From a virus, in UHGV virus genome UHGV-1334481: a DNA stretch of 57,107 nt, one strand, 5' to 3'. Shown here piece after piece: positions 4,351-56,598 of the stretch. The stretch's first letter is position 1. Every line of letters starts with the position of its first letter. The position numbers and the translations under genes were made by a program. The notes below the pieces were generated by a model that saw only the letters and a list, made by a program, of their open reading frames with translations, did no database searches and had not been told where the DNA came from.

Positions 4351-5974
<1,624 letters not shown>

Positions 5975-34760: not shown

Positions 34761-34833
34761 TGGGAATTAGCCAAGTTGGTAAGGCACTGGATTTTGATTC
34801 CAGGATGCAAAGGTTCGAGTCCTTTATTCCCAG
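34761..34833 (+). tRNA. tRNA-Gln (anticodon UUG)
   Basis: Hand-folded cloverleaf: acceptor tgggaat/attccca, anticodon loop ttTTGat, T-arm aaagg-ttcgagt-ccttt; no encoded CCA. Confidence 0.8.
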
Positions 34834-34834
34834 C

Positions 34835-34921
34835 GCGAGAATGGTCAAATTGGTAAAGGCACAGCACTTAAAATGCTGCGGAATGATTTCCTTGTGGGTT
34901 CGAGTCCCACTTCTCGCACCA
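34835..34921 (+). tRNA. tRNA-Leu (anticodon UAA), long variable arm
   Basis: Acceptor gcgagaa/ttctcgc, anticodon loop ctTAAaa, T-arm gtggg-ttcgagt-cccac, encoded CCA. Confidence 0.8.
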
Positions 34922-34926
34922 AATTT

Positions 34927-35000
<74 letters not shown>

Positions 35001-35010
35001 ATTTAATTTA

Positions 35011-35084
35011 CTCCGTGTAGCTCAGTTTGGTAGAGCGCCTGATTTGGGATCAGGAGGTCCAAGGTTCAAATCCTTGTATGGAGA
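35011..35084 (+). tRNA. tRNA-Pro (anticodon UGG)
   Basis: Anticodon stem cctga/tcagg with loop ttTGGga, T-arm caagg-ttcaaat-ccttg; acceptor has two G-U pairs. Confidence 0.75.
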
Positions 35085-35086
35085 CT

Positions 35087-35176
35087 GGAGGCGTGGCAGA
35101 GTGGTTTAATGCACCGGTCTTGAAAACCGGCAGTCGCTCCGGCGACTCATAGGTTCAAATCCTATCGCCTCCGCCA
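35087..35176 (+). tRNA. tRNA-Ser (anticodon UGA), long variable arm
   Basis: Acceptor ggaggcg/cgcctcc, anticodon stem ccggt/accgg with loop ctTGAaa, encoded CCA. Confidence 0.8.
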
Positions 35177-35181
35177 GTTTT

Positions 35182-35257
35182 GCTGATTTAGCTCAGTAGG
35201 TAGAGCAACTCACTTGTAATGAGAAGGTCGGCGGTTCGATTCCGTCAATCAGCACCA
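35182..35257 (+). tRNA. tRNA-Thr (anticodon UGU)
   Basis: Acceptor gctgatt/aatcagc, anticodon loop ctTGTaa, T-arm ggcgg-ttcgatt-ccgtc, encoded CCA. Confidence 0.8.
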
Positions 35258-35258
35258 A

Positions 35259-35333
35259 GGCCCTGTAGCTGGAAGGTTCAAGCAAGCGACTCATAATCGC
35301 CAGATGGTGGTTCAATTCCACCCAGGGCCACCA
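35259..35333 (+). tRNA. tRNA-Ile (anticodon CAU, presumed lysidine-modified) or tRNA-Met
   Basis: Acceptor ggccctg/cagggcc, anticodon loop ctCATaa, encoded CCA; T4 tRNA-Ile is known to carry CAU (memory). Confidence 0.75.
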
Positions 35334-35337
35334 ATCT

Positions 35338-35412
35338 GGATGTGTAGCTCAGTGGTAGAGCAGTTGACTGTTAATCAATTGGTCCATGGTTCGAATCCAT
35401 GCATGTCCGCCA
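35338..35412 (+). tRNA. tRNA-Asn (anticodon GUU), tentative
   Basis: Anticodon stem gttga/tcaat with loop ctGTTaa, T-arm catgg-ttcgaat-ccatg, encoded CCA; acceptor has two G-U pairs. Confidence 0.65.
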
Positions 35413-35416
35413 AATA

Positions 35417-35492
35417 CGAGGCATAGCTCAGAAGGAAGAGCAAGGACCTTCTAAGTCCTAGGTCGTAGGTTCGATCCCTACTGCCTCGACCA
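35417..35492 (+). tRNA. tRNA-Arg (anticodon UCU)
   Basis: Acceptor cgaggca/tgcctcg (C1-G72), anticodon stem aggac/gtcct with loop ctTCTaa, encoded CCA. Confidence 0.8.
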
Positions 35493-35508: not shown

Positions 35509-35859
35509 ATGAAAGGTAATGTTTATTTAGTAGTTCATGATTTAACATTCTATTTTAATCATAATGACACTGTTATTTCTGAACGTGTAATTAATTTGCT
35601 TTATCAGCATGCAGATTATGTTTATGTCGAAAACGAATATGGTCATTGGCAATTTCTCAAAAATCGTTCATTTGGTTTAGATGGTTACGAATATTTTGAA
35701 CGTAAAGACCTTTTAGATAAAATTCCGTTATCTACACAATATCAAAATCACAAGTCTTTATATAAATGCCGTCCAATTCGAAATGCTGAATCTGCGTATG
35801 AAGTAATTGATTTATGGCGTAAACGCCGTGAATATATTGATTCTTTAAAAGAATATTAA
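35509..35859 (+). CDS. hypothetical protein (tRNA-region ORF)
   Basis: 116-aa ORF with GAGGAAAA RBS immediately after tRNA-Arg. Confidence 0.6.
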   Translation: MKGNVYLVVHDLTFYFNHNDTVISERVINLLYQHADYVYVENEYGHWQFLKNRSFGLDGYEYFERKDLLDKIPLSTQYQNHKSLYKCRPIRNAESAYEVIDLWRKRREYIDSLKEY

Positions 35860-35864
35860 GAAAC

Positions 35865-36170
35865 CGGGTCGCTACCGGTAAGTCGTCGGACTGATGTTCC
35901 CTGAGTAAGGACTGGCATTAACAAATCTTTACGATCTGTTAACGTCCCCTTACATCACAGCAGAAACGGCGCACCGAATTATCGATTCGAGGAAATATCT
36001 TTGCCGTAAGCCGAGTAGCGTTTTTGACGGAACGTTCGGATATGGTCGAGATATGGCCTTTTAAAAATATTGAGTGGCGTCAACTACTTAATAACCGGGT
36101 TCGAATCCCGGCGTTTCGTACAAACACTTGCCTTAGCAGGTGGAACCCCGACAAGGTTGCCGCAAGGCTT
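35865..36170 (+). ncRNA. putative stable small RNA(s), tRNA-like (T4 species 1/2 rnaC/rnaD-like)
   Basis: About 300 nt with no ORF of 60 codons or more, GC-rich with tRNA-like T-arm cgggttcgaatcccg (about 36097-36111); bounded by a terminator at 36172-36198. Confidence 0.4.
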
Positions 36171-36171
36171 A

Positions 36172-36198
36172 GCCCCGACCGAAAGGTTGGGGCTTTTT
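36172..36198 (+). terminator. rho-independent terminator
   Basis: gccccgacc-gaaa-ggttggggc hairpin followed by TTTTT. Confidence 0.7.
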
Positions 36199-36200
36199 AG

Positions 36201-36208
36201 TATAAATA
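36201..36208 (+). promoter_or_regulatory. late promoter (TATAAATA) upstream of the internal-protein-like gene
   Basis: Exact tataaata 41 nt upstream of ATG 36249. Confidence 0.5.
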
Positions 36209-36248
36209 CAGTAGTATATTAAATCCACGAATTAAAACAGGAAATAAG

Positions 36249-43606: not shown

Positions 43607-43911
43607 TGACAGACACACAGCTTTTCGAATATCTTTATTTTTCGCCAAAAACTATTAAAAATAAATTGGTGAATCATTTTGAAATTTTGGCAAATAACAA
43701 CGTCTTGAGCGAATTTTATCCTAAGCAATACAAATTGCAAAAAGGTGTATTCAAAGGATGCAGAGTTTTGTGTACTGCTCCTAATGCAAGATTAATGAAT
43801 AAAATTCCATATTTTACCATGGAATTTATTGATGGACCTTTTAAAGGACTAATCACCCAAAGTTTAATGGCATACGATTCTGAGCCATTTTTAATTAAAG
43901 AACAATCTTAG
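43603..43911 (+). CDS. hypothetical protein
   Basis: ATGA overlap with the upstream stop; 102 aa. Confidence 0.5.
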   Translation: MMTDTQLFEYLYFSPKTIKNKLVNHFEILANNNVLSEFYPKQYKLQKGVFKGCRVLCTAPNARLMNKIPYFTMEFIDGPFKGLITQSLMAYDSEPFLIKEQS

Positions 43912-43938
43912 ATAAATTTATTTTCTAATTGAGGTTAT

Positions 43939-44301
43939 ATGAAAGCATATCAAATTCTTGAAGGCACACATAAAGGTACTATTTATTTTGAAGATGGTAT
44001 TCAAGCACGAATTATTGTTTCTAAAACCTTTAAAGAGGATTCTTTTGTAGACCCAGAAATTTTCTACGGTTTGCACACCCGTGAAATTGAAATTGAACCA
44101 CAACCTACAGTTAAAATTGAAGGTGGTCAACACCTGAACGTTAACGTTCTGCGTCGTGAAACTCTGGAAGATGCAGTTAAGCATCCGGAAAAATATCCGC
44201 AGCTGACCATCCGTGTATCCGGTTATGCAGTTCGCTTTAACTCTCTGACTCCGGAACAGCAGCGCGACGTTATCGCTCGTACCTTTACTGAGAGCTTGTA
44301 A
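43939..44301 (+). CDS. grcA: autonomous glycyl radical cofactor GrcA/YfiD-like protein (T4 Y06I-type)
   Basis: C-terminal half matches E. coli GrcA from memory, including [29 protein letters not shown]; that half has host-like GC-rich codons. Confidence 0.85.
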
Positions 44302-44522
44302 TGGCAAAGATAATTATTGAAGGTTCTAAAGATGTGTTAAATGCTTTCGCAGAATGGTTTAGTAATTCAGGCGAACAGCAATTTAATGAAGCGTGGAATA
44401 TGGGTGATATTAGTGGAATTTATCCTACGACAGAAATTTCTGTTCAGGGATATGGCATTTATGAACCTATTCGTTTAGTTGAATATGATTTGGGAACGGG
44501 CGAGGAAGTCAAATATGATTGA
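44301..44522 (+). CDS. hypothetical protein
   Basis: 73-aa ORF coupled to the grcA-like stop. Confidence 0.5.
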   Translation: MAKIIIEGSKDVLNAFAEWFSNSGEQQFNEAWNMGDISGIYPTTEISVQGYGIYEPIRLVEYDLGTGEEVKYD

Positions 44523-44781
44523 AGATATTAAAGGTTATAAGCCGCACACTGAAGAGAAAATCGATAAAGTGAATGCTATCAAAGACGCTGAAGTTCGTTT
44601 AGGACTTATCTTTGACGCTTTATATGATGAATTCTGGGAAGCACTAGATAATTGTGAAGACTACGAATTCGCAAAGAATTATGCTGAAAGCCTCGATCAG
44701 TTAACTATTGCTAAAACGAAACTCAAAGAAGCTAGTATGTGGGCTTGTCGTGCTGTGTTCCAACCAGAGGAAAAATATTAA
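44515..44781 (+). CDS. hypothetical protein
   Basis: Start at ATG 44515 overlapping the upstream stop; 88 aa. Confidence 0.5.
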
Positions 44782-45059
44782 TGGCTCAATTAAGCGCAGG
44801 GTTTGGTTATGAGTATTATACTGCCCCTCGTCGTGTATCTGTTGCTCCTAAGAAAATTCAAAGTCTTGATGACTTCCAAGAAGTAGTCCGTAAAGCTTTC
44901 CAGGACTATGCACGTTATCTTAAAGAAGATTCACAGGACTGTCTCGAAGAAGATGAAATTGCTTACTATGAGCAGCGTCTTGAACAGCTTAAAAACCTAC
45001 ATGAGGTCCGTGCAGAAGTTTCAAAGTCTATGAATAAATTGATTAGATTTAAAGAATAA
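44781..45059 (+). CDS. hypothetical protein
   Basis: Start at ATG 44781 (GAGGAAAA RBS); 92 aa. Confidence 0.5.
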
Positions 45060-45062
45060 CTG

Positions 45063-45090
45063 TTTACTTTTCCTCTTGACTGTGGTATAA
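45063..45090 (+). promoter_or_regulatory. T4-type early promoter
   Basis: -35 gtttac and -10 tataat, followed by AAGAGGAG RBS. Confidence 0.55.
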
Positions 45091-45118
45091 TTTTTCTATC
45101 AGTTAAGAGGAGAATAAC

Positions 45119-45580
45119 ATGACTATCAACACAGAAGTTTTTATCCGTCGAAATAAGCTTCGTCGTCACTTTGAGTCGGAGTTTCGTCAAATTAACAATG
45201 AGATTCGTGAGGCATCAAAAGCAGCAGGAGTCTCATCGTTTCATCTAAAATATTCTCAGCATCTTCTTGATCGTGCAATTCAACGGGAGATTGATGAGAC
45301 ATATGTTTTTGAATTATTCCACAAAATAAAAGACCACGTTTTAGAAGTTAATGAATTCCTGAGTATGCCTCCACGTCCTGATATTGACGAGGATTTTATT
45401 GATGGGGTTGAATACCGTCCTGGACGTTTAGAAATCACAGATGGAAATCTTTGGCTTGGATTTACGGTTTGTAAACCTAATGCGAAGTTCAAAGACCCGT
45501 CGCTTCAATGCAGGATGGCAATTATCAACAGTCGTCGTTTACCAGGAAAGGCTTCTAAAGCAGTAATTAAAACTCAATGA
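45119..45580 (+). CDS. hypothetical protein
   Basis: 153-aa ORF with strong RBS. Confidence 0.6.
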   Translation: MTINTEVFIRRNKLRRHFESEFRQINNEIREASKAAGVSSFHLKYSQHLLDRAIQREIDETYVFELFHKIKDHVLEVNEFLSMPPRPDIDEDFIDGVEYRPGRLEITDGNLWLGFTVCKPNAKFKDPSLQCRMAIINSRRLPGKASKAVIKTQ

Positions 45581-45587
45581 GGTAAGC

Positions 45588-46133
45588 ATGAGAAAAGCAC
45601 TACTCGCTGGTCTATTGGCCATTTCAATGATGGCACATAGCTCCGAGCATACTTTCAGTAATGTCCAACTCGATAACATGCGTTACGCGTATCAATTCGG
45701 GGAACAATTTTCTAAGGATGGAAAATATAAAACACACAAAAATATCCACAAGAGCGGATTGGGTCATATAATGGCTGCTATTTTATGGCAAGAAAGCTCT
45801 GCCGGAGTTAATTTAAAATCTAAACCAAAGCATCATGCCTATGGAATGTTCCAAAATTATTTGCCTACTATGCGAGCAAGAGTTAAGGAACTTGGTTATA
45901 ATATGACCGATGCTGAAATAAAAAGAATGTTGAATAAACGGTCCAATTCAGCTTCCTGGGCGTACATTGAACTTTCTTATTGGTTAAATATACATAAGGG
46001 CGATATAAGAAAGGCGATATCCTCTTATAATTCGGGATGGAATGTTAAAGCAGGTTCTAAATATGCTTCTGAAGTCCTAGAAAAGGCTAATTACCTTAAA
46101 AATAATAAACTTTTGGAAATAGTAAATGACTAA
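45588..46133 (+). CDS. secreted lytic-transglycosylase-like (SLT domain) protein
   Basis: N-terminal signal peptide MRKALLAGLLAISMMAHS; SLT-like motifs WQESSAG, YGMFQN, SYNSGWN. Confidence 0.5.
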   Translation: MRKALLAGLLAISMMAHSSEHTFSNVQLDNMRYAYQFGEQFSKDGKYKTHKNIHKSGLGHIMAAILWQESSAGVNLKSKPKHHAYGMFQNYLPTMRARVKELGYNMTDAEIKRMLNKRSNSASWAYIELSYWLNIHKGDIRKAISSYNSGWNVKAGSKYASEVLEKANYLKNNKLLEIVND

Positions 46134-46473
46134 AATTTTGGTTTTATGTATAGGATTAATTTCATTTTCTGCTTCTGCGTTAGCAGATACATCATATACT
46201 GAAATTAGAGAGTATGTAAACCGTACTGCCGCGGATTATTGTGGGAAAAATAAAGCATGCCAAGCTGAATTTGCGCAGAAATTAATATATGCATATAAAG
46301 ACGGAGAAAGAGATAAATCAAGCAGATACAAAAATGATACATTGTTAAAACGATATGCTAAAAAGTGGAATACCTTAGAATGTTCAGTTGCGGAGGAGAA
46401 AGATAAAGCCGCTTGTCATTCAATGGTTGACCGTTTAGTAGATTCTTATAATCGAGGATTGAGTACTAGATGA
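46126..46473 (+). CDS. secreted Cys-containing protein
   Basis: Signal peptide MTKILVLCIGLISFSASALA; 4 Cys in the mature part. Confidence 0.55.
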   Translation: MTKILVLCIGLISFSASALADTSYTEIREYVNRTAADYCGKNKACQAEFAQKLIYAYKDGERDKSSRYKNDTLLKRYAKKWNTLECSVAEEKDKAACHSMVDRLVDSYNRGLSTR

Positions 46474-46949
46474 TTGTAAAATATATCAAGGGCGATATTG
46501 TCGCCCTATTTCTTCAAGGTAATATTATTGCGCACGGGTGCAATTGCTTCCACACAATGGGCTCTGGCGTAGCGGGTCAATTAGCAAGAGCCTATCCCAA
46601 AATTTTAGAAATAGATAAAACCACTACCGAGTACGGTTCTCGTGATAAATTAGGCGATATGTCTATTGTTTTTAAACATAGTCCTACGGGATTTGGTATA
46701 TGCTATAACCTGTATACACAATACGAACCGGGTCCTAATCTTGATTATGGTGCTTTAGTAAACTGCATGATAGAATTAAATCTACAGGCAGAAACCCTTT
46801 TGTTTAAACCAGTAATTTACATTCCACGTATAGGTTGCGGTATTGCTGGCGGCGATTGGGATAAGGTTTCTAAATTAATCGACATGTTTACTCCTGATAT
46901 TGATTTAATAGTGGTGGATTATGAAAGTACATTACCCGCATCCGTTTGA
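46470..46949 (+). CDS. macro-domain-like protein (putative ADP-ribose binding/hydrolase)
   Basis: Motifs GDIV..., HGCNCFHTMGSGVAGQL and IPRIGCGIAGGDW resemble macro-domain signatures; by eye only. Confidence 0.45.
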   Translation: MIVKYIKGDIVALFLQGNIIAHGCNCFHTMGSGVAGQLARAYPKILEIDKTTTEYGSRDKLGDMSIVFKHSPTGFGICYNLYTQYEPGPNLDYGALVNCMIELNLQAETLLFKPVIYIPRIGCGIAGGDWDKVSKLIDMFTPDIDLIVVDYESTLPASV

Positions 46950-47133
46950 TCCTAAAAACAAAGTGGAAATTATTCGTCAATGGGAACGCATTTGCCGTAC
47001 TAAATGCCCAATTAATAGTCCACATGGTGTAGATAAAGACTATATTGGAACATTCGTTGAATATACCTTTATTGATAAGAAAGGTCGTAAACAACACGTA
47101 GAAGAATATTGTTTAAAGGTTACATGGTTATGA
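46921..47133 (+). CDS. hypothetical protein
   Basis: 70-aa ORF overlapping the upstream 3' end. Confidence 0.45.
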   Translation: MKVHYPHPFDPKNKVEIIRQWERICRTKCPINSPHGVDKDYIGTFVEYTFIDKKGRKQHVEEYCLKVTWL

Positions 47134-47336
47134 GCCAAACAAGTATTCTTAAAAATGCCCACTGCGAAAAGTGTGAATGGCCAGTTGTTTTTGCTTTATG
47201 TAATGATGAAATGGCTTGTGATTTCGATTATTGGTGCTATTGTTCTAATAAAGGATGCATCAATCATAAAGGTGAAGGATTTTATTCAGGATTTTATCCT
47301 TATCCCGATTTCGTTAAAGAAGGTAAACCGAAATGA
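47130..47336 (+). CDS. Cys-rich small protein (putative zinc-binding)
   Basis: Start at ATG 47130 (ATGA overlap); CxxC pairs CEKC...CNDEMAC...CYCSNKGC. Confidence 0.45.
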   Translation: MSQTSILKNAHCEKCEWPVVFALCNDEMACDFDYWCYCSNKGCINHKGEGFYSGFYPYPDFVKEGKPK

Positions 47337-47506
47337 ATAGTTTTGAGTTACAATATGAAGTGTTACGTGAGCTTGATAATTTAATTGAACTCGCTGTCAA
47401 TAAAGGTTTTGCCATTGGAATCGGTCAAAAAGATACTGGTCATTTAACTATGGAAATATTTAAGCAAAAGCGAATTATTTTAAAACTCCTGGAAATTAAT
47501 ATATGA
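47333..47506 (+). CDS. small hypothetical protein (57 aa)
   Basis: Hand-found ORF below the tool cutoff; ATGA-coupled at both ends. Confidence 0.4.
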   Translation: MNSFELQYEVLRELDNLIELAVNKGFAIGIGQKDTGHLTMEIFKQKRIILKLLEINI

Positions 47507-47688
47507 GTCTGAGTAAAGAACAAAAAGATAAATTGTTTGAGCTTATCCATGAACTTCTAGATGAGCATACAGAAGCAAACACCTTTTATGATGAATACGG
47601 CCCGCTATCTCCCGATCAACAAGAAGAATTTGCTGATCGGTTTGATAAGAAAGAAAACGAATTAATAGCTTATGTGAATACGCTTTAA
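47503..47688 (+). CDS. hypothetical protein
   Basis: 61-aa acidic ORF, ATGA-coupled. Confidence 0.5.
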   Translation: MSLSKEQKDKLFELIHELLDEHTEANTFYDEYGPLSPDQQEEFADRFDKKENELIAYVNTL

Positions 47689-47697
47689 GAAGGTGAT

Positions 47698-48279
47698 ATG
47701 GCGAGTTTAATTTTTACTTACGCAGCAATGAATGCTGGAAAATCTGCTTCTCTTTTGACTGCTGCGCATAATTATAAAGAACGCGGAATGGGTGTATTAG
47801 TTCTTAAGCCTGCTATTGATACTCGTGATTCTGTCTGTGAAGTCGTTTCTCGCATTGGAATTAAGCAGGAAGCGAATATTATTACGGATGATATGGATAT
47901 TTTTGAGTTCTATAAATGGGCTGAAGCACAAAAGGATATTCATTGTGTATTTGTAGATGAAGCCCAGTTTTTAAAAACTGAACAGGTGCATCAATTAAGC
48001 CGAATTGTTGATACATATAATGTTCCTGTTATGGCTTATGGACTAAGGACTGATTTCGCTGGAAAATTATTTGAAGGTTCTAAAGAACTTTTGGCGATTG
48101 CAGATAAACTTATTGAACTAAAAGCAGTTTGTCATTGTGGTAAAAAAGCTATTATGACAGCTCGATTAATGGAAGATGGAACGCCAGTTAAAGAAGGTAA
48201 TCAAATCTGTATTGGTGATGAAATTTATGTTTCTTTGTGTAGAAAACATTGGAATGAATTAACTAAAAAGCTTGGTTAG
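47698..48279 (+). CDS. tk: thymidine kinase
   Basis: 193 aa; P-loop MNAGKSASLL, VDEAQF motif and C-terminal Cys cluster; same length as T4 Tk. Confidence 0.92.
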   Translation: MASLIFTYAAMNAGKSASLLTAAHNYKERGMGVLVLKPAIDTRDSVCEVVSRIGIKQEANIITDDMDIFEFYKWAEAQKDIHCVFVDEAQFLKTEQVHQLSRIVDTYNVPVMAYGLRTDFAGKLFEGSKELLAIADKLIELKAVCHCGKKAIMTARLMEDGTPVKEGNQICIGDEIYVSLCRKHWNELTKKLG

Positions 48280-48321
48280 TGCAAAAGTTATAAATAGGTT
48301 TATCTAACTAAAGGGGTATAT

Positions 48322-48534
48322 ATGCTACAATTAACTGAAAAGCAACTTCGCAATCTTACTGTTCTTCAATTAGATGAAATTCGTAGGGAAGTTGGAAATA
48401 TCATTTCAGCTTTGCGTCGAGAAGTATCACTCAACCAATCTCCGGCAGACTATACTAGATTGCGAAATTTTGAAAAATACCTTGATAAAGTTAAGGCCGT
48501 GCATCGGCATAAAGTAAATACAGGACAAAAATGA
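48322..48534 (+). CDS. hypothetical protein
   Basis: 70-aa ORF with RBS between tk and rI. Confidence 0.5.
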
Positions 48535-48546
48535 TAGGAGGCCTTT

Positions 48547-48840
48547 ATGGCCTTAAAAGCAACGGCACTATTTGCCATGCTAGGATTAGCATTTGCTTTG
48601 TCTCCACCGATTGAAGCGAATGTCGATCCTCATTTTGATAAATTTATGGAATCTGGTATTAGACACGTTTATATGCTTTTTGAAAATAAAAGCGTAGAAT
48701 CATCTGAACAGTTCTATAGTTTTATGCGAACGACCTATAAAAATGACCCGTGCTCTTCCGATTTTGAATGTATAGAACGAGGCGCGGAGATGGCACAATC
48801 ATACGCTAGAATTATGAACATTAAATTGGAGACTGAATGA
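48547..48840 (+). CDS. rI: lysis inhibition regulator RI (secreted antiholin)
   Basis: 97 aa with N-terminal signal-anchor MALKATALFAMLGLAFALSPPIEA; matches T4 RI in length, location next to tk and sequence (memory). Confidence 0.7.
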   Translation: MALKATALFAMLGLAFALSPPIEANVDPHFDKFMESGIRHVYMLFENKSVESSEQFYSFMRTTYKNDPCSSDFECIERGAEMAQSYARIMNIKLETE

Positions 48841-49223
48841 AATTCAGCGACTTTTCACAAAGTGGAAAACCTTCAAAGGCAGATGAATACTTAGGTTTAT
48901 TAATGGCTGCACAAGCTTATTTTCATTCTGCGCATTTTGAAACTAAAAGTTATGCTAGACACAAAGCATACGATTTTATTTTCTCTGAATTGCCAGATTT
49001 GATTGATAAATTTGGTGAGCAATATTTAGGGTATTCTGGTAGAAAATACACGCCTTCAATTCCAGATGCCAGTAAACTTCCTACCGACACAATTAAAATG
49101 ATTGATCGCATACTAGACCAATCTAACAGCATTTATAAAGAAATGCCTCCAGCCATTCAAAGCACGATAGATGATATTACTGGGATGTTTTACCAGAGCA
49201 AATATCTTCTTTCCCTCGAATAA
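48837..49223 (+). CDS. hypothetical protein (rI.1 position)
   Basis: 128-aa ORF coupled to the rI stop. Confidence 0.55.
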
Positions 49224-49227
49224 CATT

Positions 49228-49251
49228 AGTCTCCTTCGGGAGACTTTTTTC
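49228..49251 (+). terminator. rho-independent terminator
   Basis: agtctcc-ttcg-ggagact hairpin followed by TTTTTT. Confidence 0.7.
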
Positions 49252-49260
49252 ATTTTACCA

Positions 49261-49290
49261 GTTTACTTTCAATTTGAGCTGTGATACTAT
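49261..49290 (+). promoter_or_regulatory. T4-type early promoter
   Basis: -35 gtttac, -10 gatactat, 10 nt after the terminator hairpin. Confidence 0.55.
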
Positions 49291-49318
49291 ACAACCATCG
49301 GATAAAGAGGAGAACATC

Positions 49319-49507
49319 ATGAAAATTGAAGCACTCAATCAAGAAGGAAATATCTACGTCATCATTAATGGTGATTTTTTCGTCAACATGGATGAAGTTA
49401 CTAGTGAAGAACTTGTAGAACTTCTTAAGAAACGTTATGATATGTGTGATGAAGCTGCAACTCATATGGCGTGTGCAATATTCTCTCTTTCATATGTGGT
49501 GGAATAA
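49319..49507 (+). CDS. hypothetical protein
   Basis: Start at ATG 49319 (AAGAGGAGAA RBS); 62 aa. Confidence 0.5.
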
Positions 49508-49710
49508 TGACTAGAATTGAACAAGCAGATAAAATTAAAGAATTGGTAGCTTTAATTCGCAAAGCAGATGAGGAACTTAGTGACTTTGCTTGGTTTTCGG
49601 CAGGCATTGCAAATAAAGGTATTGAAAAATTTGAAGCTAAAGTTGATAATGCTGTAGAAGCTTTAGATATGTTTCTTGATGAAATTATCGATCATAATAC
49701 GAGAGTTTAA
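49507..49710 (+). CDS. hypothetical protein
   Basis: Start at ATG 49507 overlapping the upstream stop; 67 aa. Confidence 0.5.
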   Translation: MTRIEQADKIKELVALIRKADEELSDFAWFSAGIANKGIEKFEAKVDNAVEALDMFLDEIIDHNTRV

Positions 49711-49712
49711 GT

Positions 49713-49907
49713 ATGCTAACACGTGAACAGTTTGAAAAAATTATTAAATTAGCACGTGATGTTGAAATAGATTCATATCAATTAGCAGTTGAGCATTGTG
49801 AAGGATACTCATACGATGGTATAGAAGCAGCTAAAAAGGATTTGGATAAATCCAAAGCTAAGTTAGTTCAATATCTTGAAATGATTAGGTGGAATAATGA
49901 AAACTGA
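49713..49907 (+). CDS. hypothetical protein
   Basis: 64-aa ORF. Confidence 0.5.
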   Translation: MLTREQFEKIIKLARDVEIDSYQLAVEHCEGYSYDGIEAAKKDLDKSKAKLVQYLEMIRWNNEN

Positions 49908-50070
49908 AAAGCAGATGTTTTTAATGAAGCTAATTGAAGAATATGCTAATGCAGTTTCTGACTATGAGTATTCTGCTCGAGAAAGAGGTACAGCTTTCGC
50001 AAAGGAAGAAATGAAAATCATGGTTGATGCTCACACAAAGCTTCAGAATTTTATTGAAAACGTCATTTAA
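49897..50070 (+). CDS. small hypothetical protein (57 aa)
   Basis: Hand-found ORF below the tool cutoff; start overlaps the upstream gene end. Confidence 0.4.
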   Translation: MKTEKQMFLMKLIEEYANAVSDYEYSARERGTAFAKEEMKIMVDAHTKLQNFIENVI

Positions 50071-50072
50071 TG

Positions 50073-50102
50073 GTTTACAAGTTGGCAAGGTTATGATATA
50101 GT
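50073..50102 (+). promoter_or_regulatory. T4-type early promoter
   Basis: -35 gtttac and -10 gatatagt. Confidence 0.5.
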
Positions 50103-50237
50103 AATCTTGTCAACTGCCAAGGAGAAGAGAATGAAAGTTTTGTTTGTTGTGTATGTGATGATTCAATATAATTATCCAATGTTTACTTATAATCTGGTGA
50201 ACAATATTATTGATATTATTCAAAGGAGTATGTAATT

Positions 50238-50537
50238 GTGAGTGAGTCGAAGAGAATCAATATGAAACGATTAGTATTAGAAGTTAGTCCGCTTTTTGGT
50301 GAATTGGCTATAGAAAAAGTAAATAACATGTATCGTTTGACACAAGAAGACGATATGCTGTATTTTATGCCTAGTGAAATCATTCATTTAACCCAAATTG
50401 AATATCCTTATACTGATAAAATAGTAAGCATCAATGATGAGCACAAAATTCATTTTTATTCTTCATGCCCAGGATTTAATATTAAAAGTGAGTCAATGTG
50501 CTTATCAATTAATAATTTAATTGGGATAATTTTATAA
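50238..50537 (+). CDS. hypothetical protein (GTG start); possibly the 5' part of a gene continuing in another frame to 50809
   Basis: 99-aa ORF with AGGAG RBS 9 nt upstream of GTG; a second frame is open for 97 codons from 50516 to 50809 with no usable start. Confidence 0.45.
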   Translation: MSESKRINMKRLVLEVSPLFGELAIEKVNNMYRLTQEDDMLYFMPSEIIHLTQIEYPYTDKIVSINDEHKIHFYSSCPGFNIKSESMCLSINNLIGIIL

Positions 50538-50815
50538 CTTACATTAAATATTTTTATTATTCTAATGAAAGAAAACATAGTTTAAAATGGCTCAAAAATT
50601 GCAATGCTATTATTACTAACGCTTGCGATCAGTGCGATCAAAATGATGAAACTGTTTTAAATGTGTCAAAATGCTATGAAGATGGAGATGTCTTAACTAT
50701 TCGTCAAATTGATGATTTTCGTTCACATATTGTCACATTTACCAAAGACGAAGCTATTGCGCTAAAGACTTATCTCGATTCTGTCATTCCAACTATGATT
50801 TCAAAGTGAGGAAAT

Positions 50816-51337
50816 ATGTTTATTTCAAGTGAAAGCGGTTTAATTCGTGTTGAATTTAAAAATGACATCTTTCTTATTCAAGGAGATGATATTATTAAAA
50901 TGAGTTATGATGAAATCAAGAAAATTTGTCATGCTCTTGAAAGTCATGGAAAAGTGAACGCTGTTATTGATATTGGCGATTTATGGGTGACACTTTATGA
51001 AGTATCCGAAGGATTTAACATTGAAGATGAAAATAACATTTTAGCTATTGATAAAAGAAGTGATTTGTTTGATGTGTTAAAAGTTTATGAACAGTCAAAC
51101 GGTGGAAGAAAAGCTGTATTGATTTATCAAAAACCACATTCATGTGGAACTGCTTCAATCATTTCAGATATTGAAGATGAAACTGATACTTATATGTGTG
51201 TTTTAAAAGCTGGTGGTGACCGTCATCCGGATTTTATTTCTATTCGTCAAAACAATGGAGAAATTTCATTATCAAAATCAGAAGCTGAAGCTATGATTAA
51301 GTATTTAACAACTGTTACACCTTCAATGAAAGGATGA
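50816..51337 (+). CDS. hypothetical protein
   Basis: 173-aa ORF with GAGGAAA RBS. Confidence 0.55.
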   Translation: MFISSESGLIRVEFKNDIFLIQGDDIIKMSYDEIKKICHALESHGKVNAVIDIGDLWVTLYEVSEGFNIEDENNILAIDKRSDLFDVLKVYEQSNGGRKAVLIYQKPHSCGTASIISDIEDETDTYMCVLKAGGDRHPDFISIRQNNGEISLSKSEAEAMIKYLTTVTPSMKG

Positions 51338-51819
51338 TTATAATTATGATTATTAATGAAAACTCTTGGCACTTTAAAATTTACTCGGCATTTAACAGCA
51401 CATGGAATCGTCCAAAAACGTTATGTGCTTATTTTTGGAAAACGTTTCTCCCGGTATTAGCGGTTTCAATTGTTGGATTTGCAACTTTAACAGGTGCTGC
51501 AATAATTGGCCAAGAAATTTTAATTAAATTCTTTGTCTTTAGTAGTCTATGGACATTAATTCCAGCTTCAATTGGTATAGGCATTTTAGCATTATCGGTC
51601 ATGGTTCTTATTGCTGTCGGGGCGGTAATTGGTCCTTCCTGGTTGTTAGACAAATATAACGACCGAAAGCTCAATAAAGAAATTGAGCTCATTGTACAAA
51701 ACGAAGAACGAATCAAAAATGGACTTGAGCCTATTCAACCCAAGAAATCTATTATCGTCGAATTTTTAAAAGCGCGTAAAGCTAAAGTATGTCCTGTTAT
51801 TGAATATAAGGCTGAATGA
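51334..51819 (+). CDS. membrane protein
   Basis: 161 aa with several hydrophobic helices; the start may instead be ATG 51346. Confidence 0.55.
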   Translation: MIIIMIINENSWHFKIYSAFNSTWNRPKTLCAYFWKTFLPVLAVSIVGFATLTGAAIIGQEILIKFFVFSSLWTLIPASIGIGILALSVMVLIAVGAVIGPSWLLDKYNDRKLNKEIELIVQNEERIKNGLEPIQPKKSIIVEFLKARKAKVCPVIEYKAE

Positions 51820-52829
51820 TGAAAACAGTAATGAAAAGCTATTTTGGTAGTCATCTTTATGGAACTTCTACTCCAGAATCTGATGTAGATTTTAAAGAAA
51901 TCTTTGTTCCTCCTGCTCGTGATATTCTTATCGGAAATGTTAAAGAGCATATGAGTAAAAACACTAACAACACATCATCTAAAAACACTAAAGATGATAT
52001 TGACCATGAACTATACAGTCTTAAGTATTTCTTTAAATTAGCAGCAGATGGTGAAACTGTAGCATTGGATATGCTCCACACTCCACCTGAACTGGTAGTT
52101 AAATCTGATTTGCCTGATGTATGGAAGTTTATTCAAGACAATCGTTCTCGTTTTTATACGACTAACATGAAATCCTACTTAGGATATGTTCGCAAGCAAG
52201 CTTCTAAATACGGTGTTAAGGGTTCTCGTTTGGCCGCATTACGTGATGTATTGAAAGTAGTTAATCAAATCCCTGAGCAATGGGTTGATTACCAAGAAGA
52301 CGGTTCCATTAAGCAGCGTCGAACTAAAGTTGAAGATATTAAGCATCGTCTTCCAGAGAACGAATTCTGTGAATGGGTATTCCATAATCATGAGAAAACA
52401 GGCCCACAAACGTTCTACACTGTGTTGGGTCGTAAATATCAAACAACACTTTCTCTTATTGAGCTTAAGCAATCTTTGAATAAACTTGATGCTGAATACG
52501 GCGAACGTGCTCGTAAGGCTGAAGCGAATGAGGGCATTGACTGGAAAGCTCTGAGTCATGCTTGCCGTGGTGGACTCCAACTATTGGAAATTTACAAAAC
52601 TGGTGACTTAGTCTATCCACTTCAAGACGCTCCATTTATTCTCGACGTGAAGTTGGGTAAACATCCATTTAAAACTGTTCAAGAGTTTTTGGAAGATGTG
52701 GTCGATCAAGTAGAAGCAGCATCCATTGAAGCTTCTAAGAACGGTATACAGCAAAAAGTAGACATGTGTTTTTGGGATGACTTCCTTGAGAGGGTTTATC
52801 TTGAAAACCATCGAAGTTATTATAAATGA
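51816..52829 (+). CDS. nucleotidyltransferase-fold protein (Pol-beta-like NTase motif)
   Basis: 337 aa; N-terminal GS...(10 residues)...DVD motif (YFGSHLYGTSTPESDVDF) typical of minimal nucleotidyltransferases; by eye only. Confidence 0.55.
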   Translation: MMKTVMKSYFGSHLYGTSTPESDVDFKEIFVPPARDILIGNVKEHMSKNTNNTSSKNTKDDIDHELYSLKYFFKLAADGETVALDMLHTPPELVVKSDLPDVWKFIQDNRSRFYTTNMKSYLGYVRKQASKYGVKGSRLAALRDVLKVVNQIPEQWVDYQEDGSIKQRRTKVEDIKHRLPENEFCEWVFHNHEKTGPQTFYTVLGRKYQTTLSLIELKQSLNKLDAEYGERARKAEANEGIDWKALSHACRGGLQLLEIYKTGDLVYPLQDAPFILDVKLGKHPFKTVQEFLEDVVDQVEAASIEASKNGIQQKVDMCFWDDFLERVYLENHRSYYK

Positions 52830-52831
52830 TA

Positions 52832-52856
52832 GGGAGCCTTCGGGTTCCCTTTTTTA
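52832..52856 (+). terminator. rho-independent terminator
   Basis: gggagcc-ttcg-ggttccc hairpin followed by TTTTTT. Confidence 0.7.
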
Positions 52857-52944
52857 TTTCAAAATTTTTTCACAAAACGGTTTACAAGCATTAGTGTCCC
52901 GCTCGGTTTATTTGGATTTGGGTGTTCACACTAATGAAGAAATT

Positions 52945-53157
52945 ATGGTCAGGGTTGAAGATGTTATTCTTTCAACTGACATGATGCAAAAGCGTGGTCT
53001 TTCTGATGAAGAAACTTATAAAGCATTATCATGGATGAAAGTTAATGTTAATCGTTTACGCAATGTTTCACTGCGTACTGCTCTTTATCTTGCTGACTTT
53101 ATTATGACCGACAAAAACGGTTGGGAAGAAATCGCTGAGGTTACTCTTCTGAAATAA
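52945..53157 (+). CDS. hypothetical protein (start uncertain)
   Basis: Tool ORF 52777-53157 spans the terminator and promoter; first plausible ATG downstream of them is 52945; RBS weak. Confidence 0.35.
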   Translation: MVRVEDVILSTDMMQKRGLSDEETYKALSWMKVNVNRLRNVSLRTALYLADFIMTDKNGWEEIAEVTLLK

Positions 53158-53258
53158 TTCATAAGAGGACTTCTATGACAAAAAGGCAGTTCAGAAATAG
53201 ATTATATGGACTGCCATTAAAAAGATGACTAGAATTAAACTGGTGAATGGAGGTAGTG

Positions 53259-53561
53259 ATGTTATACTCAAAGGCTCGTGAAATTTACGAAACTAAAATT
53301 AAAGAAGCAGTATTTCAGTTCGCAACGACAATGCGATGGACAAATGACTGGGAGTATTCAAAAAATCATAAGAAGCCCATGGTGACAAGAAAGGCTCATA
53401 TGTTAGTGTTAATAGACCGTGAGCAGATTAAAGCCCGAGAAGCCCTCCAGAATCACAAAAAGGCTGCCTTTGAATGGTTTATGGATAACACTGCTCCTGA
53501 GACCAAGAAAGCGGTAAGTGCATGGTTCAGTGGAAAAAATTGTGAAAGAAGTTTCTTTTAG
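53259..53561 (+). CDS. hypothetical protein
   Basis: Start at ATG 53259 with GGAGG RBS (the tool's ATG 53247 lies inside the RBS); 100 aa. Confidence 0.5.
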   Translation: MLYSKAREIYETKIKEAVFQFATTMRWTNDWEYSKNHKKPMVTRKAHMLVLIDREQIKAREALQNHKKAAFEWFMDNTAPETKKAVSAWFSGKNCERSFF

Positions 53562-53563
53562 TG

Positions 53564-53593
53564 GTTTACAAGACTGTTCCTCTGTGGTATTAT
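53564..53593 (+). promoter_or_regulatory. T4-type early promoter
   Basis: -35 gtttac, -10 tattat; leader ttaccctatcaactac is identical to the one at 33250-33265. Confidence 0.5.
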
Positions 53594-53621
53594 TACCCTA
53601 TCAACTACGGAGGAACAGAAA

Positions 53622-54149
53622 ATGAACGCTAAAGATATTTTCAACTTAGTAAATTATAACGATGGTAAATTTAAATCTGAAGCACAAAGCAAGTTCTTTA
53701 ATGACATCTCAATCGGAGGTGAAATCACTGTTGATGGAGGACAAATTTACAAATCACGTTGGAATTGGATTGTTATTATTGATGAGATCGGTATTGTAGA
53801 AATTTACAAAAATACGAATAAAAATCGTACATTACACTGGTCTCGTGATACTAACAAACAGTACAAAAAGGATAAAGCATCTAAATTATCTCGTGTAACT
53901 CAAGAAGATATTGAGTTCATCAAGAAAGATATTTTAATGTATGATAACTTAATTGCTGAAGAGCAAGCTGTTATTGATAAATTTGACGAGATTAAAGCTT
54001 CTCGTGAAATTCCTGATTTTATGAAAGAATCGGTAAATGAACGATACACTCTCATTTCAGAGCGTATTGAAACTTACAAAAAGCAAAGAGCTGAACGCCA
54101 AAATACTCTTCGGAAGTTTGAAGAACGGTTAAAGACGGTACTCGCATAA
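53622..54149 (+). CDS. hypothetical protein
   Basis: 175-aa ORF with GGAGGA RBS. Confidence 0.55.
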   Translation: MNAKDIFNLVNYNDGKFKSEAQSKFFNDISIGGEITVDGGQIYKSRWNWIVIIDEIGIVEIYKNTNKNRTLHWSRDTNKQYKKDKASKLSRVTQEDIEFIKKDILMYDNLIAEEQAVIDKFDEIKASREIPDFMKESVNERYTLISERIETYKKQRAERQNTLRKFEERLKTVLA

Positions 54150-54204
54150 CCGCTTTATACCAAGGATGGTATAATGGTTCTAAGCCCTTTTAATTGAGAT
54201 TATT

Positions 54205-54612
54205 ATGAAACAGTTGATAATTAAAAGATTGAATTTATTGATATGTTGTTTATGTGTAGTAGTTGCATATGGTTATTACGCAATTAATGATTATATGCAT
54301 TATAAAGATTATGATGTTACTGTAGTTAATACCCTTACAGGAACTCAAGGAAAGGGGTCTAGTTTATCGTTTATTGCCGTATATGAACTCAAAGACGGTT
54401 ATAGATTTAGTGAATATATTTCCCCAGAGATGTATTCTTCAATAGAAAAAGGTGATAATATTACTGTAAGTTTACGTCCTTTCGACGTAAAACAGACATG
54501 GTTTGATAATATTGTTTGGTTCTTTGGAATGGTATTAGTTCAATCTGTGTGTGGTGCTTATATAGTCTTTTCCATCATATTCTGTGTATTTAGTAAAATT
54601 GAAATTGAGTGA
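54205..54612 (+). CDS. membrane protein
   Basis: 135 aa with N- and C-terminal hydrophobic segments. Confidence 0.55.
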   Translation: MKQLIIKRLNLLICCLCVVVAYGYYAINDYMHYKDYDVTVVNTLTGTQGKGSSLSFIAVYELKDGYRFSEYISPEMYSSIEKGDNITVSLRPFDVKQTWFDNIVWFFGMVLVQSVCGAYIVFSIIFCVFSKIEIE

Positions 54613-54619
54613 GGAAAAT

Positions 54620-55510
54620 ATGTCAGTAGTAATTAATAATGTCAATGCAGTAATTAAATCTTTAGTTAATAAAAAAATGATGAATGAATGGACTGTATTT
54701 CGCAGTGCAGAGCCAGATAAATTTTTTCATAGATTTAACTCAACTTTGGATTTGAATGTTATCGACAGAGATGTTCATGCAGAAATTTTAGATAAGTTTA
54801 AAGTTGATATTGGATTTGGATTAGAAAAACATTTGCAGCGAATAAACGGATCTGGAATGAGTTTATCTAATCGCATTATGAAAGCCCTTAATAAAATTGG
54901 AGCATTGTCTCGTATTAACGCGAATGAAATCCTTCGTAATTATAATAAAGGATATGACCTTTATGGTCGACTAATGCCAAAATTATCATTCGATCAAATG
55001 ATTGCGGATTTGTGGGAAAATCAAAGACGATTATTAGCATTAGGCGCTCGATTAGCTAAAGGTCTAGATAAACAAATGATTTTTAAGACCAATAATACAG
55101 AAGACCTTAAATGCTTTAAATTTAGTATTCGTGGCGATGATTATTATATCAGAGCTCGCTCTACAGATTATGTCAATATGGGGCATCATCTCTGTTTAGC
55201 TTTTGAAGTTTTAAAAGAAGCTGGAACATTAGAATATTCATCTGGTGCAAAATGCCCTATTGGTTCAAGTTGTATTTTAATTTATCGCCCGGATGAATCC
55301 AGTTCAACTACATTGCCTACGAAACCTGTACCAGTTCGTAGTAACGAAAAACATTCTGAACAAATTGATTATTTTAATAAGCAAATTGAAGAGCTGAATA
55401 TTTCTATTCAACAATATGATGATGAAATTTTCAGACTATCTGGACTGAGTAGTAAAGCTAAATCTGAGCGTGAAAAGTTAATTAAAATTGTCGATTTACT
55501 TAAATCTTAA
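54620..55510 (+). CDS. hypothetical protein
   Basis: Start at ATG 54620 (GAGGAAAA RBS); 296 aa. Confidence 0.55.
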   Translation: MSVVINNVNAVIKSLVNKKMMNEWTVFRSAEPDKFFHRFNSTLDLNVIDRDVHAEILDKFKVDIGFGLEKHLQRINGSGMSLSNRIMKALNKIGALSRINANEILRNYNKGYDLYGRLMPKLSFDQMIADLWENQRRLLALGARLAKGLDKQMIFKTNNTEDLKCFKFSIRGDDYYIRARSTDYVNMGHHLCLAFEVLKEAGTLEYSSGAKCPIGSSCILIYRPDESSSTTLPTKPVPVRSNEKHSEQIDYFNKQIEELNISIQQYDDEIFRLSGLSSKAKSEREKLIKIVDLLKS

Positions 55511-55518
55511 GGAACACC

Positions 55519-56541
55519 ATGAAAACTCGTTCTCAAATTGAAGATATGGTTCGTAATGCCAGCTATACTCGTGATGCTATGACGTTTTTGTGTGAAAATA
55601 ATTTAGACCTTGGTAAAGTTAATTGTTCCATTCATGCCTTTAAACATCTGAACAGCAGTGAATGGGTGCGCAATTTTAACCAAGCAGGATATATTACACA
55701 AATGACTGCTCGTGAGCAGCTCACTGATTTCTGTAAAACTATTGATTATAAAAATCCTCTATTTGTTCAAGGCGTTGGTCAAAGTAAGGTCGATTTATCA
55801 TCTGGATTTTTCAATCCAAATCATTATCGTATTGAATGGAGATTTATTGCTCTGTTCCGTAGACAATTAAAGCAAATTTTATCAACTGCGAGTCGATTAA
55901 AAGGTTCTGATATTAACTTAAAGAATCTGAAATTTGATGGTTATACTCTTCAGATGGAAGTAAGACCATTAAAAGAAAATAATAGAACTGCACGAATTAG
56001 CTTTAAACCTAATACAAAAAATTCTCTTTCAATTTGCGAATGCCTTAAATCGCAGTTGACAGAAGCATTTAAGTATATGGATGTTGTTGCCGCTGTTCAG
56101 TCTAAGATTTTACCTCATTTTGAGCGAAATTGGGAACATACAACAACGTATGAACTTGATATGATCGTTTCATTTAAATACGATTTTTTGAGAAAGGACG
56201 AAGTCCCACAAGAGAAAAAGCAGGAAGTGCAAGATAACTTAAATTTATCCAATTACTCATCAAACGATCCTAAATTTTGGATGTATAGTTCAAGTAATAA
56301 AGATGCATGGAAATTCAATAAAGCGAATTTTCTTCCTGTTGAAAATCCGAGTCTTAAACCTGTTGAAAAATGGCATGCGGATGCGATTGAGAAGTCTATC
56401 AAGGCAGTAGATGATGAACTCGTTAAAGCAACTAATGAAGTGTTAGAAGCTGAAAAGATGCTAGAAAAAGCTCAAGAAAAAGTCAAAAATCTTACGAAGC
56501 AACGTTCTAAACTGAACAATGCACTAAATGCACTAAACTAG
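55519..56541 (+). CDS. hypothetical protein (C-terminal coiled coil)
   Basis: 340-aa ORF with AGGAA RBS. Confidence 0.55.
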   Translation: MKTRSQIEDMVRNASYTRDAMTFLCENNLDLGKVNCSIHAFKHLNSSEWVRNFNQAGYITQMTAREQLTDFCKTIDYKNPLFVQGVGQSKVDLSSGFFNPNHYRIEWRFIALFRRQLKQILSTASRLKGSDINLKNLKFDGYTLQMEVRPLKENNRTARISFKPNTKNSLSICECLKSQLTEAFKYMDVVAAVQSKILPHFERNWEHTTTYELDMIVSFKYDFLRKDEVPQEKKQEVQDNLNLSNYSSNDPKFWMYSSSNKDAWKFNKANFLPVENPSLKPVEKWHADAIEKSIKAVDDELVKATNEVLEAEKMLEKAQEKVKNLTKQRSKLNNALNALN

Positions 56542-56570
56542 TTTACTTTGCCACAAGGATGTGGTATAAT
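56541..56570 (+). promoter_or_regulatory. T4-type early promoter
   Basis: -35 gtttac, -10 tataat, followed by GAGGAG RBS. Confidence 0.55.
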
Positions 56571-56598
56571 GTTCTTACTTTCTACTGAGGAGATTAAT

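Follow-up and report, generated by a model that had tools for sequence, protein, structure and literature searches.

The 57,107-nucleotide (nt) stretch of virus genome UHGV-1334481 analyzed here, referred to as the window, comes from the genome of a Tequatrovirus (T4-type) phage. It carries the orthologue of T4 vs.6, a gene whose product Y06I is a small glycyl radical protein resembling the bacterial cofactor GrcA (YfiD). A tract of 175 nt in the 3' part of the gene is identical to the chromosomal grcA gene of Escherichia coli, whereas the 5' part is of phage type. The features of the locus, including the open reading frame (ORF) itself and the G+C content at third codon positions (GC3) of its 5' part, are listed below.

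43939-44301, plus strand: vs.6/Y06I orthologue, phage autonomous glycyl radical cofactor (GrcA-like); ORF with an ATG start, 120 amino acids (aa)
43939-44116, plus strand: phage-type 5' part of vs.6; ~44% nt identity to any bacterial grcA, GC3 0.17
44117-44291, plus strand: host-derived tract of 175 nt, equal to E. coli grcA nt 200-374 (codons 67-124); 100% identity
44221-44223, plus strand: GGT codon of Gly95 in RVSGYAV, predicted glycyl radical site, from the sequence and its alignment to GrcA and the pyruvate formate-lyase (PFL) C-terminus
44292-44301, plus strand: last 10 nt of vs.6, including the stop codon TAA; two synonymous differences from E. coli
43912-43938, plus strand: intergenic stretch of 27 nt before vs.6, containing GAGG (from the sequence)
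43931-43934, plus strand: Shine-Dalgarno-like GAGG, 4 nt 5' of the ATG, read from the sequence
44301-44522, plus strand: downstream ORF in the vs.5 position, outside the host tract; placed by ORF and T4 gene order

Across the 1.3 kb around vs.6, identity is 99.9% to Escherichia phage vB_Eco_ZCEC15 and 96-99% to hundreds of T4-like phages, and the region is 96-99.9% identical to many Tequatrovirus genomes. The window protein matches T4 vs.6/Y06I at 118 of 120 residues (98%) and has the same length. In T4 the gene occupies positions 63557-63919 and is annotated 'autonomous glycyl radical cofactor GrcA'. The gene order is also that of T4, with a vs.7-like gene upstream, a vs.5-like gene downstream, and a vs.1-like ORF (181 aa, 45588-46133) further on; the neighborhood of the T4 orthologous group is vs.7, vs.6, vs.5 and then regB and vs.1, and the window gene sits in it.

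The C-terminal half of the protein belongs to the glycyl radical family. Pfam PF01228 (Gly_radical) matches aa 61-101 with 66.9 bits against a cut-off of 22.2, and PDB entry 6owr (E. coli GrcA), a solved structure with an identical domain sequence, is matched over aa 22-120 with E=8e-42. A phmmer search aligned phage aa 22-120 to E. coli GrcA 28-127 and also aligned PFL 697-759. Residues 61-120 match E. coli GrcA 68-127 without exception (100%), and the radical motif RVSGYAV, which lies within aa 91-100, is the same in both proteins; Gly95 pairs with E. coli GrcA Gly102, a 7-residue offset. The radical domain is 77% like the C-terminus of PflB and is not NrdD-like. The product is therefore a small stand-alone protein, 120 aa with a C-terminal glycyl radical domain. 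The radical domain is highly conserved at the protein level across all bacteria and phages. A first-pass annotation, made from the letters alone, had named the ORF at 43939-44301 and noted a GrcA-type C-terminal sequence in it. The ORF is real and so is the GrcA/YfiD-like identity, given the Pfam match and the correspondence of residues 61-120 with GrcA 68-127. The annotation also cited T4 Y06I as a precedent; this match was correct but understated, as the window gene is the actual vs.6/Y06I orthologue and T4 carries the same tract.

The main evidence for the host origin of the tract comes from nucleotide comparisons with bacterial grcA. In a blastn search of vs.6 against 5,426 complete genomes of E. 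coli, alignment was confined to gene positions 179-363 (44117-44301), which matched chromosomal grcA in every genome at 98.9%. Over positions 44117-44291, many genomes matched without a single difference (100%), and 5,156 of the 5,432 matching records reached at least 99%. Direct alignment gave unbroken identity across 44117-44291, followed by two synonymous differences (GAA>GAG at 44292 and CTG>TTG at 44296) and the stop codon. The 5' 178 nt of vs.6 showed ~44% identity to any bacterial grcA, which is the chance level for aligned coding DNA. At the ~83% identity of phage lineages without the tract, the chance of 175 straight identities is ~7e-15. A sharply bounded segment with almost no synonymous change (0 of 44 sites) beside a saturated one (~44% nt identity upstream) is the pattern that marks gene conversion.

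Synonymous sites also resolve the donor. None of the 44.2 synonymous sites in the tract differs from E. coli. In the same codons, the synonymous divergence (dS) between E. coli and another Escherichia species is 0.047, and it rises to 0.41 for Citrobacter, 0.81 for a Klebsiella, and 1.07 for Salmonella. These values identify E. coli (or Shigella) as the donor. In phage lineages without the tract, which encode a near-identical protein segment, 58-64% of synonymous sites differ from E. coli; thus, protein constraint cannot explain the identity. Identities among bacterial grcA genes follow bacterial relatedness, and this pattern together with the host composition of the tract in an AT-rich phage gene indicates that the transfer ran from host to phage. 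The tract is not an assembly artefact because ~646 independent phage records (Tequatrovirus and Mosigvirus), the T4 reference included, contain it. The rest of the window (1-43938 and 44302-57107), had no megablast match in any of the 5,426 E. coli genomes, and the ORF in the vs.5 position (44301-44522) likewise had no E. coli match. The tract is the only host-like DNA in 57 kb.

Base composition changes at about the same place. G+C content in 100-nt windows is 0.26-0.29 at 43900-44049 and 0.48-0.52 at 44150-44299, and GC3 is 0.17 in codons 1-59 versus 0.44 in the remainder of vs.6. Codons preferred by E. coli (CTG five times, CGT four times, CCG and CAG three times each) occur only in the 3' part of the gene. 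The 175-nt tract has a G+C content of 0.491 compared with 0.358 for the whole window (z 2.75, top 1.1% of 175-nt windows). However, about nine other islands of the window, a tRNA cluster among them, are as GC-rich as the tract, so composition by itself was rejected as proof of host origin and is supportive only. Islands of this kind (175-nt G+C content 0.47-0.52) lie at 585-2083, 3050-3240, 4747-4941, 15197-15871, and 35856-36212. These five had no megablast match in the 5,426 E. coli genomes and are therefore not recent E. coli-derived patches.

The tract did not arrive as part of a new gene. Rather, it appears to have replaced part of an old one. Nolan et al. 2006 listed vs.6 among the few ORFs conserved in 6/6 T4-like genomes compared and noted only its Gly_radical domain; conservation in all six genomes implies that the gene is old. 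The 5' half shows 54-98% aa identity among Tequatrovirus, Mosigvirus, Jiaodavirus, Karamvirus, Slopekvirus, and Pseudotevenvirus. The N-terminal 59 aa alone matched no Pfam or NCBIfam family. When phage and bacterial GrcA N-terminal profiles were compared with hhalign, aa 19-59 aligned in register to 25-66 (probability 89%, E=2e-6; 41 columns, 34% identity), with the first ~18 phage residues unaligned. The 5' half thus seems not to be foreign: by these comparisons it has orthologues throughout the T4-like genera compared and is distantly related to the N-terminus of GrcA.

Furthermore, full-length diverged homologues exist that could represent the recipient. In Karamvirus, Slopekvirus, Pseudotevenvirus, Krischvirus, and T5-like phages the gene is full length, and its 3' half reaches only 70-83% identity to any host gene, with dS >1 from the host. 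No E. coli- or Klebsiella-type tract was found in the genes of these five groups that were examined. A phage-type ending, GAGAGTCTATAA, is common to Mosigvirus ST0, Slopekvirus, and Pseudotevenvirus, and the window keeps its GAG; the 3' junction therefore lies inside vs.6. The patch starts at the first bases where the phage and host genes can be aligned (GAAGGTGG, codon 60/61) and ends ~10 nt before the stop codon. The conserved 5' half, the diverged full-length homologues, and the retained phage-type terminal codons together point to an old complete homologue whose 3' half was overwritten.

These results bear on what the first-pass annotation had said of the gene's composition and origin. Its comparison with host grcA came out positive, with 175 nt matching exactly, and neither an absence of similarity nor a uniform composition was seen. 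The proposed mid-gene jump is present in both measures (G+C content 0.26-0.29 to 0.48-0.52, GC3 0.17 to 0.44), and the N-terminal half is AT-rich and phage-type as described, with GC3 0.17 and orthologues among T4-like genera. The ~65 host-like codons placed from ~44100 are real, but they start at 44117 and number 61. The description of the gene as a chimera from host capture holds for the 3' half, which is host DNA; replacement within a pre-existing full-length phage homologue is the better account of the whole.

GrcA-like genes also occur outside this group of phages. Krischvirus W115 and pEJ01 (RB49 type, infecting E. coli) have a longer homologue of ~138 aa in a different neighborhood, with nrdC.11 or an HNH gene alongside. 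The 3' half of this homologue reaches only 70-76% identity to the E. coli-type tract. The Krischvirus gene has moved or was separately acquired. Others are found in Tequintavirus (T5-like phages such as AKFV33, with E. coli and Salmonella hosts) and in the 355-kb jumbo Escherichia phage A4, with 3' halves ~70-75% identical to host-type sequence. Judging from these homologies, the spare-part gene appears to be widespread in virulent enterobacterial phages beyond the T4 family.

A comparable tract from another host is found in phages of Klebsiella. Jiaodavirus phages carry the same vs.6 gene with the same length and the same 5' boundary, and GC3 rises from 0.24 to 0.59 across it in KpV477. Their residues are of the Klebsiella type (LLDAVEH, not LEDAVKH). 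In phage Merci, gene positions 181-312 match K. pneumoniae grcA exactly (132 nt; p ~3e-8 at the 87.6% identity between E. coli and Klebsiella), and across this stretch K. pneumoniae and E. coli differ by 12%. Over positions 179-351, identity to K. pneumoniae is 95.4% for Merci, 93.1% for KpV477, and 93.7% for RCIP0102, versus 84.5-88.5% to E. coli. Searches with the two host genes mirror each other. Querying with K. pneumoniae grcA gave 106 records at 95-99% (best 97.6%; the top listed matches are Klebsiella phages) and E. coli phages at 85-88%; with E. coli grcA as query, 639 records reached at least 95% and Klebsiella phages 85-89%. Replacement thus happened at least twice, with E. coli DNA in Tequatrovirus and Mosigvirus and, in a clearly independent event, with Klebsiella DNA in Jiaodavirus. 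The K. pneumoniae and K. aerogenes grcA sequences were taken from PLSDB entries that are chromosomes labelled as plasmids (CP125156.1, 5.37 Mb; NZ_OL790696.1, 4.80 Mb; and others). In the K. aerogenes entry LR134122.1, a 1-nt insertion truncates the annotated grcA coding sequence, probably a sequencing error.

The Jiaodavirus tract ends earlier (~gene position 344) and is more eroded or mosaic (93-97.6%). Merci, KpV477, and RCIP0102 differ from K. pneumoniae grcA at largely non-overlapping positions, and RCIP0102 also matches K. aerogenes without a mismatch at gene positions 181-218 and E. coli at 307-344. Such a pattern suggests that the genes of Jiaodavirus drew on several donors or were re-converted patch by patch.

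How old is the tract in E. coli phages? The window phage and two Mosigvirus phages share 67-68% nt identity in vs.7 and 70-71% in vs.5. In the same comparison, identity is 88% in the 5' part of vs.6 (dS 0.40-0.45) and 98.9-99.4% in the tract (dS 0.02-0.05). A Fisher test on synonymous sites gave p ~0.0005-0.001, and for the tract against vs.5 p was 4e-16. The low-divergence block between the genera opens exactly at the host-phage boundary, with inter-genus differences 8-21 nt upstream. In other words, the tract is far younger than the split between Tequatrovirus and Mosigvirus, and, measured against the speciation of enterobacteria, it is recent. The 5' boundary (grcA nt 200) is identical in all E. 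coli-type phages, which also carry one common E. coli allele; their variants are private. Three scenarios remain for them: separate conversion, occasional re-conversion, or transfer of the patch between genera with coincident breakpoints.

Two further observations concern the surroundings and the distribution of the tract. The 27-nt spacer before vs.6 is 100% identical between the window phage and the two Mosigvirus phages, despite flanking genes at 67-71%, and the last ~100 nt of the vs.7-like ORF (from ~43830) show much stronger conservation than vs.7 elsewhere (67-68% over the whole gene). The conserved block at ~43830-43938 possibly holds translation or transcription signals for vs.6. In phages labelled Hafnia, Yersinia pseudotuberculosis, Salmonella, or Shigella, a tract of the E. 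coli type is present at 96-99%; it may point to the usual host of a lineage rather than the host of isolation.

What would such a protein do in an infected cell? The finding that T4 Y06I is activated and restores PFL reportedly originates with Wagner et al. 2001, as cited by Andorfer et al. 2021. Active PFL is cleaved by oxygen at its radical glycine (PMC8683613, Andorfer et al. 2021). This article describes E. coli YfiD and T4 Y06I as ~14-kDa 'spare parts' that are activated by the PFL activating enzyme (PFL-AE) and restore O2-cleaved PFL. YfiD 61-127 has the fold of PFL 693-759, and YfiD 1-60 is disordered and dispensable for catalysis but needed for measurable binding, with ~fourfold better radical installation (PMC8683613). 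The tract (E. coli residues 67-124) encodes almost the whole structured glycyl radical domain, and the phage-specific half corresponds to the disordered binding region.

Taken together, it is highly probable that vs.6 is a spare-part gene whose radical-domain segment was overwritten from host grcA, from host to phage, recently, and at least twice. In the proposed mechanism, the radical-domain segment of an old AT-rich full-length phage gene would have been overwritten by homologous (homeologous) recombination or gene conversion, with chromosomal grcA as the template. Heteroduplex would extend to the limits of phage-host similarity, leaving a patch from codon 60/61 to ~10 nt before the stop codon. 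A residual similarity of ~75-83% and the enormous number of infections would make such recombination possible, and replaced alleles could then spread if the exact host domain is at least as good as the diverged one. During infection, the phage would shut off host expression and make its own small glycyl-radical-domain protein. Host PflA would install a radical on Gly95, and the domain would dock into oxygen-cut host PFL and restore the production of acetyl-CoA and formate in low-oxygen infection. Fermentative energy metabolism could thereby be kept running during infection in microaerobic habitats. It is a tentative idea, somewhat short of probable, that repeated host-templated gene conversion keeps the radical-domain half in step with the current host (phage-host concerted evolution), and that such changes are fixed since a spare part must fit the activase and the lyase.

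Several points weigh against the reading of vs.6 as an overwritten spare-part gene. Host matching is frequent but not universal, and it is no general rule. With C. amalonaticus grcA as query, no phage exceeded 92.3%, and that best match was a cross-match to the E. coli tract; a Citrobacter-specific tract was therefore rejected for the C. amalonaticus allele. Enterobacter, Cronobacter, and T5-like phages showed no host-matched tract (best 73-83% to every host gene), and Krischvirus phages of E. coli have no host tract. The radical domains of E. coli and Klebsiella differ at two residues only. The donor-allele test found a single common allele with private variants, a result that does not separate conversion in Tequatrovirus and in Mosigvirus from exchange between them. 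Three E. coli alleles, each one base away from the phage tract, vary at CAA/CAG, CGT/CGC, and GTT/GTA, sites used by none of the phage variants. On the NCBIfam equivalog profile TIGR04365 (spare_glycyl), the phage protein scored 153.4 bits (aa 20-120 to profile 25-126), below the cut-off of 170, while E. coli GrcA scored 233.9 bits. The phage protein falls below the cut-off because its N-terminal half is divergent; it would work like GrcA yet appears to form a divergent phage-specific subfamily rather than a strict equivalog. The recombination mechanism is read from the endpoints of the patch, and selection for matching the host's own domain is likewise inferred. PFL repair by the window protein is expected from its 98% identity to T4 Y06I, so this function follows the reports on Y06I.

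Other histories could account for parts of the data. A single E. coli conversion in one genus, followed by spread of the patch by phage-phage recombination in co-infected cells, is possible, though we consider it unlikely. T-even phages recombine readily, only one donor allele is present, and vs.6 with its upstream 27 nt is better conserved between the genera than the flanks, all of which fit such an exchange. However, it would need the same breakpoints as the host-phage event, since the conserved block starts at the host-phage boundary and differences appear 8-21 nt upstream. It is distinctly less likely that one ancient conversion, before Tequatrovirus and Mosigvirus diverged, was inherited vertically and evolved slowly, with no repeated or recent events. 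The shared 5' boundary (grcA nt 200), the shared E. coli allele, and the private, drift-like differences from E. coli after acquisition would follow from such a history. Against it, dS between the genera is 0.02-0.05 in the tract versus 0.40-0.45 in the 5' half, with flanks at 67-71% (p ~0.001). In lineages without the tract, dS here is >1, so no intrinsic synonymous constraint exists. Moreover, the tract has zero synonymous differences from living E. coli, whereas the nearest sister species of E. coli differs from it by dS 0.047.

Two further alternatives deny either the replacement or the transfer. A host 3' fragment could have been fused to an unrelated phage ORF by illegitimate recombination, which would make vs.6 a true chimera; the lack of Pfam or NCBIfam matches to the N-terminal 59 aa and the chance-level nt identity to grcA in that half are what this predicts. 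We regard it as very improbable, because hhalign links the N-terminal halves in register (89%), phmmer aligns aa 22-120 to GrcA 28-127, the lineages without the tract already have full-length genes with the same 5' half, and the phage-type 3' end persists. Extreme purifying selection together with codon-usage convergence on a constrained domain, without any DNA transfer, could draw on the strong conservation of the domain protein in all bacteria and phages. The synonymous-site counts refute such convergence: 0/44 sites differ, compared with 30-60% in other phage lineages and enterobacteria with the same protein sequence, and Klebsiella phages follow the synonymous choices of Klebsiella. The chance that it is correct is negligible. 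As to function, the protein might not repair PFL in vivo and instead act as a decoy that soaks up PflA, or serve another glycyl radical enzyme (TdcE or phage NrdD, for example). A role of vs.6 in nucleotide metabolism was suggested by Nolan et al. 2006, as NrdD shares the Gly_radical domain, and the literature searched yielded no in vivo phage phenotype. This is improbable given that the domain is identical to that of host GrcA, 77% like the PflB C-terminus, and not NrdD-like, and that PMC8683613 reports reconstitution of cleaved PFL by T4 Y06I after PFL-AE activation. Overwriting of a resident phage gene by host DNA, with PFL repair as the likely role of its product, thus remains the preferred reading.

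Some features of the locus and the window lie outside this argument. The vs.6 stop codon overlaps the ATG of the next ORF (TAATG), and a GAGAG located 6 nt 5' of that ATG may be its ribosome-binding site. An antisense ORF of 129 aa (TTG start, minus strand, 43918-44307) spans all of vs.6; nothing suggests that it is a gene. A promoter and terminator scan around vs.6 gave counts at the level of shuffled sequence and was uninformative. Elsewhere the window contains a tRNA cluster, and in an Rfam search across the window only these tRNAs were matched.

34761-35492, plus strand: nine tRNA genes (Gln, Leu, Gly, Pro, Ser, Thr, a tRNA with a CAT anticodon, Asn-GTT, and Arg-TCT), found with ARAGORN and Rfam

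The T4 reference has eight tRNA genes and is not known to have tRNA-Asn, so the window phage may carry one extra.

The gene and its protein are already known, as T4 Y06I in a close relative and as annotated GrcA in many records. T4 Y06I carries the same E. coli tract (98.4% over the 3' part) but has T47A and R73H, a few synonymous changes, and the last codons GAAAGTTTG instead of the GAGAGCTTG of the window. E. coli GrcA/YfiD shares with the phage protein the 175 nt of identical coding DNA, the RVSGYAV loop, and apparently a two-part layout (in YfiD, a disordered N-terminal half followed by the radical domain). Unlike GrcA, the phage protein has an N-terminal half that is 7 residues shorter, 34% identical over 41 columns, and without the conserved bacterial NSFWLLD segment, and it is encoded by an AT-rich 5' half with phage codon usage. 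The Jiaodavirus genes of Merci, KpV477, and RCIP0102 differ from the window gene in their Klebsiella donor and in a shorter, more mosaic tract. Zeidner et al. 2005 and Sullivan et al. 2006 reportedly described intragenic recombination between host and phage in the cyanophage photosystem gene psbA, which yields mosaic auxiliary metabolic genes. There too, a lytic phage has a host-type metabolic gene in which segments bear host signatures and the composition shifts. Here, by contrast, the identity is exact to an allele of a living host species and covers one structural domain, the same boundary occurs in two phage genera that are each matched to their host genus, and T-even types degrade host DNA. 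A host-matched mosaic at the nucleotide level was not found described in the literature searched for vs.6, Y06I, and GrcA with phage, and older papers may have noticed it earlier. What the analysis adds is an exact map of the mosaic and the finding that E. coli and Klebsiella phages reciprocally match their own hosts.

For the biology of T-even phages, vs.6 is a clean case of DNA flow from host to phage in a virulent family whose members break down host DNA and use modified cytosine. Its divergent N-terminal half, the counterpart of the binding region of YfiD, is a target for asking how the phage protein recognizes its client. If the replacement is recurrent and selected, the locus would let homeologous recombination of lytic phages with their hosts be measured in a simple natural setting, and it would mark the recent host history of T-even genomes, those of phages labelled Yersinia, Hafnia, and Salmonella that have the E. 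coli tract among them. It would also argue that spare-part proteins must closely match their client enzyme. Should host-templated concerted evolution prove true, vs.6 would be evidence from nature that recombination of T-even phages with host DNA continues even though they degrade it.

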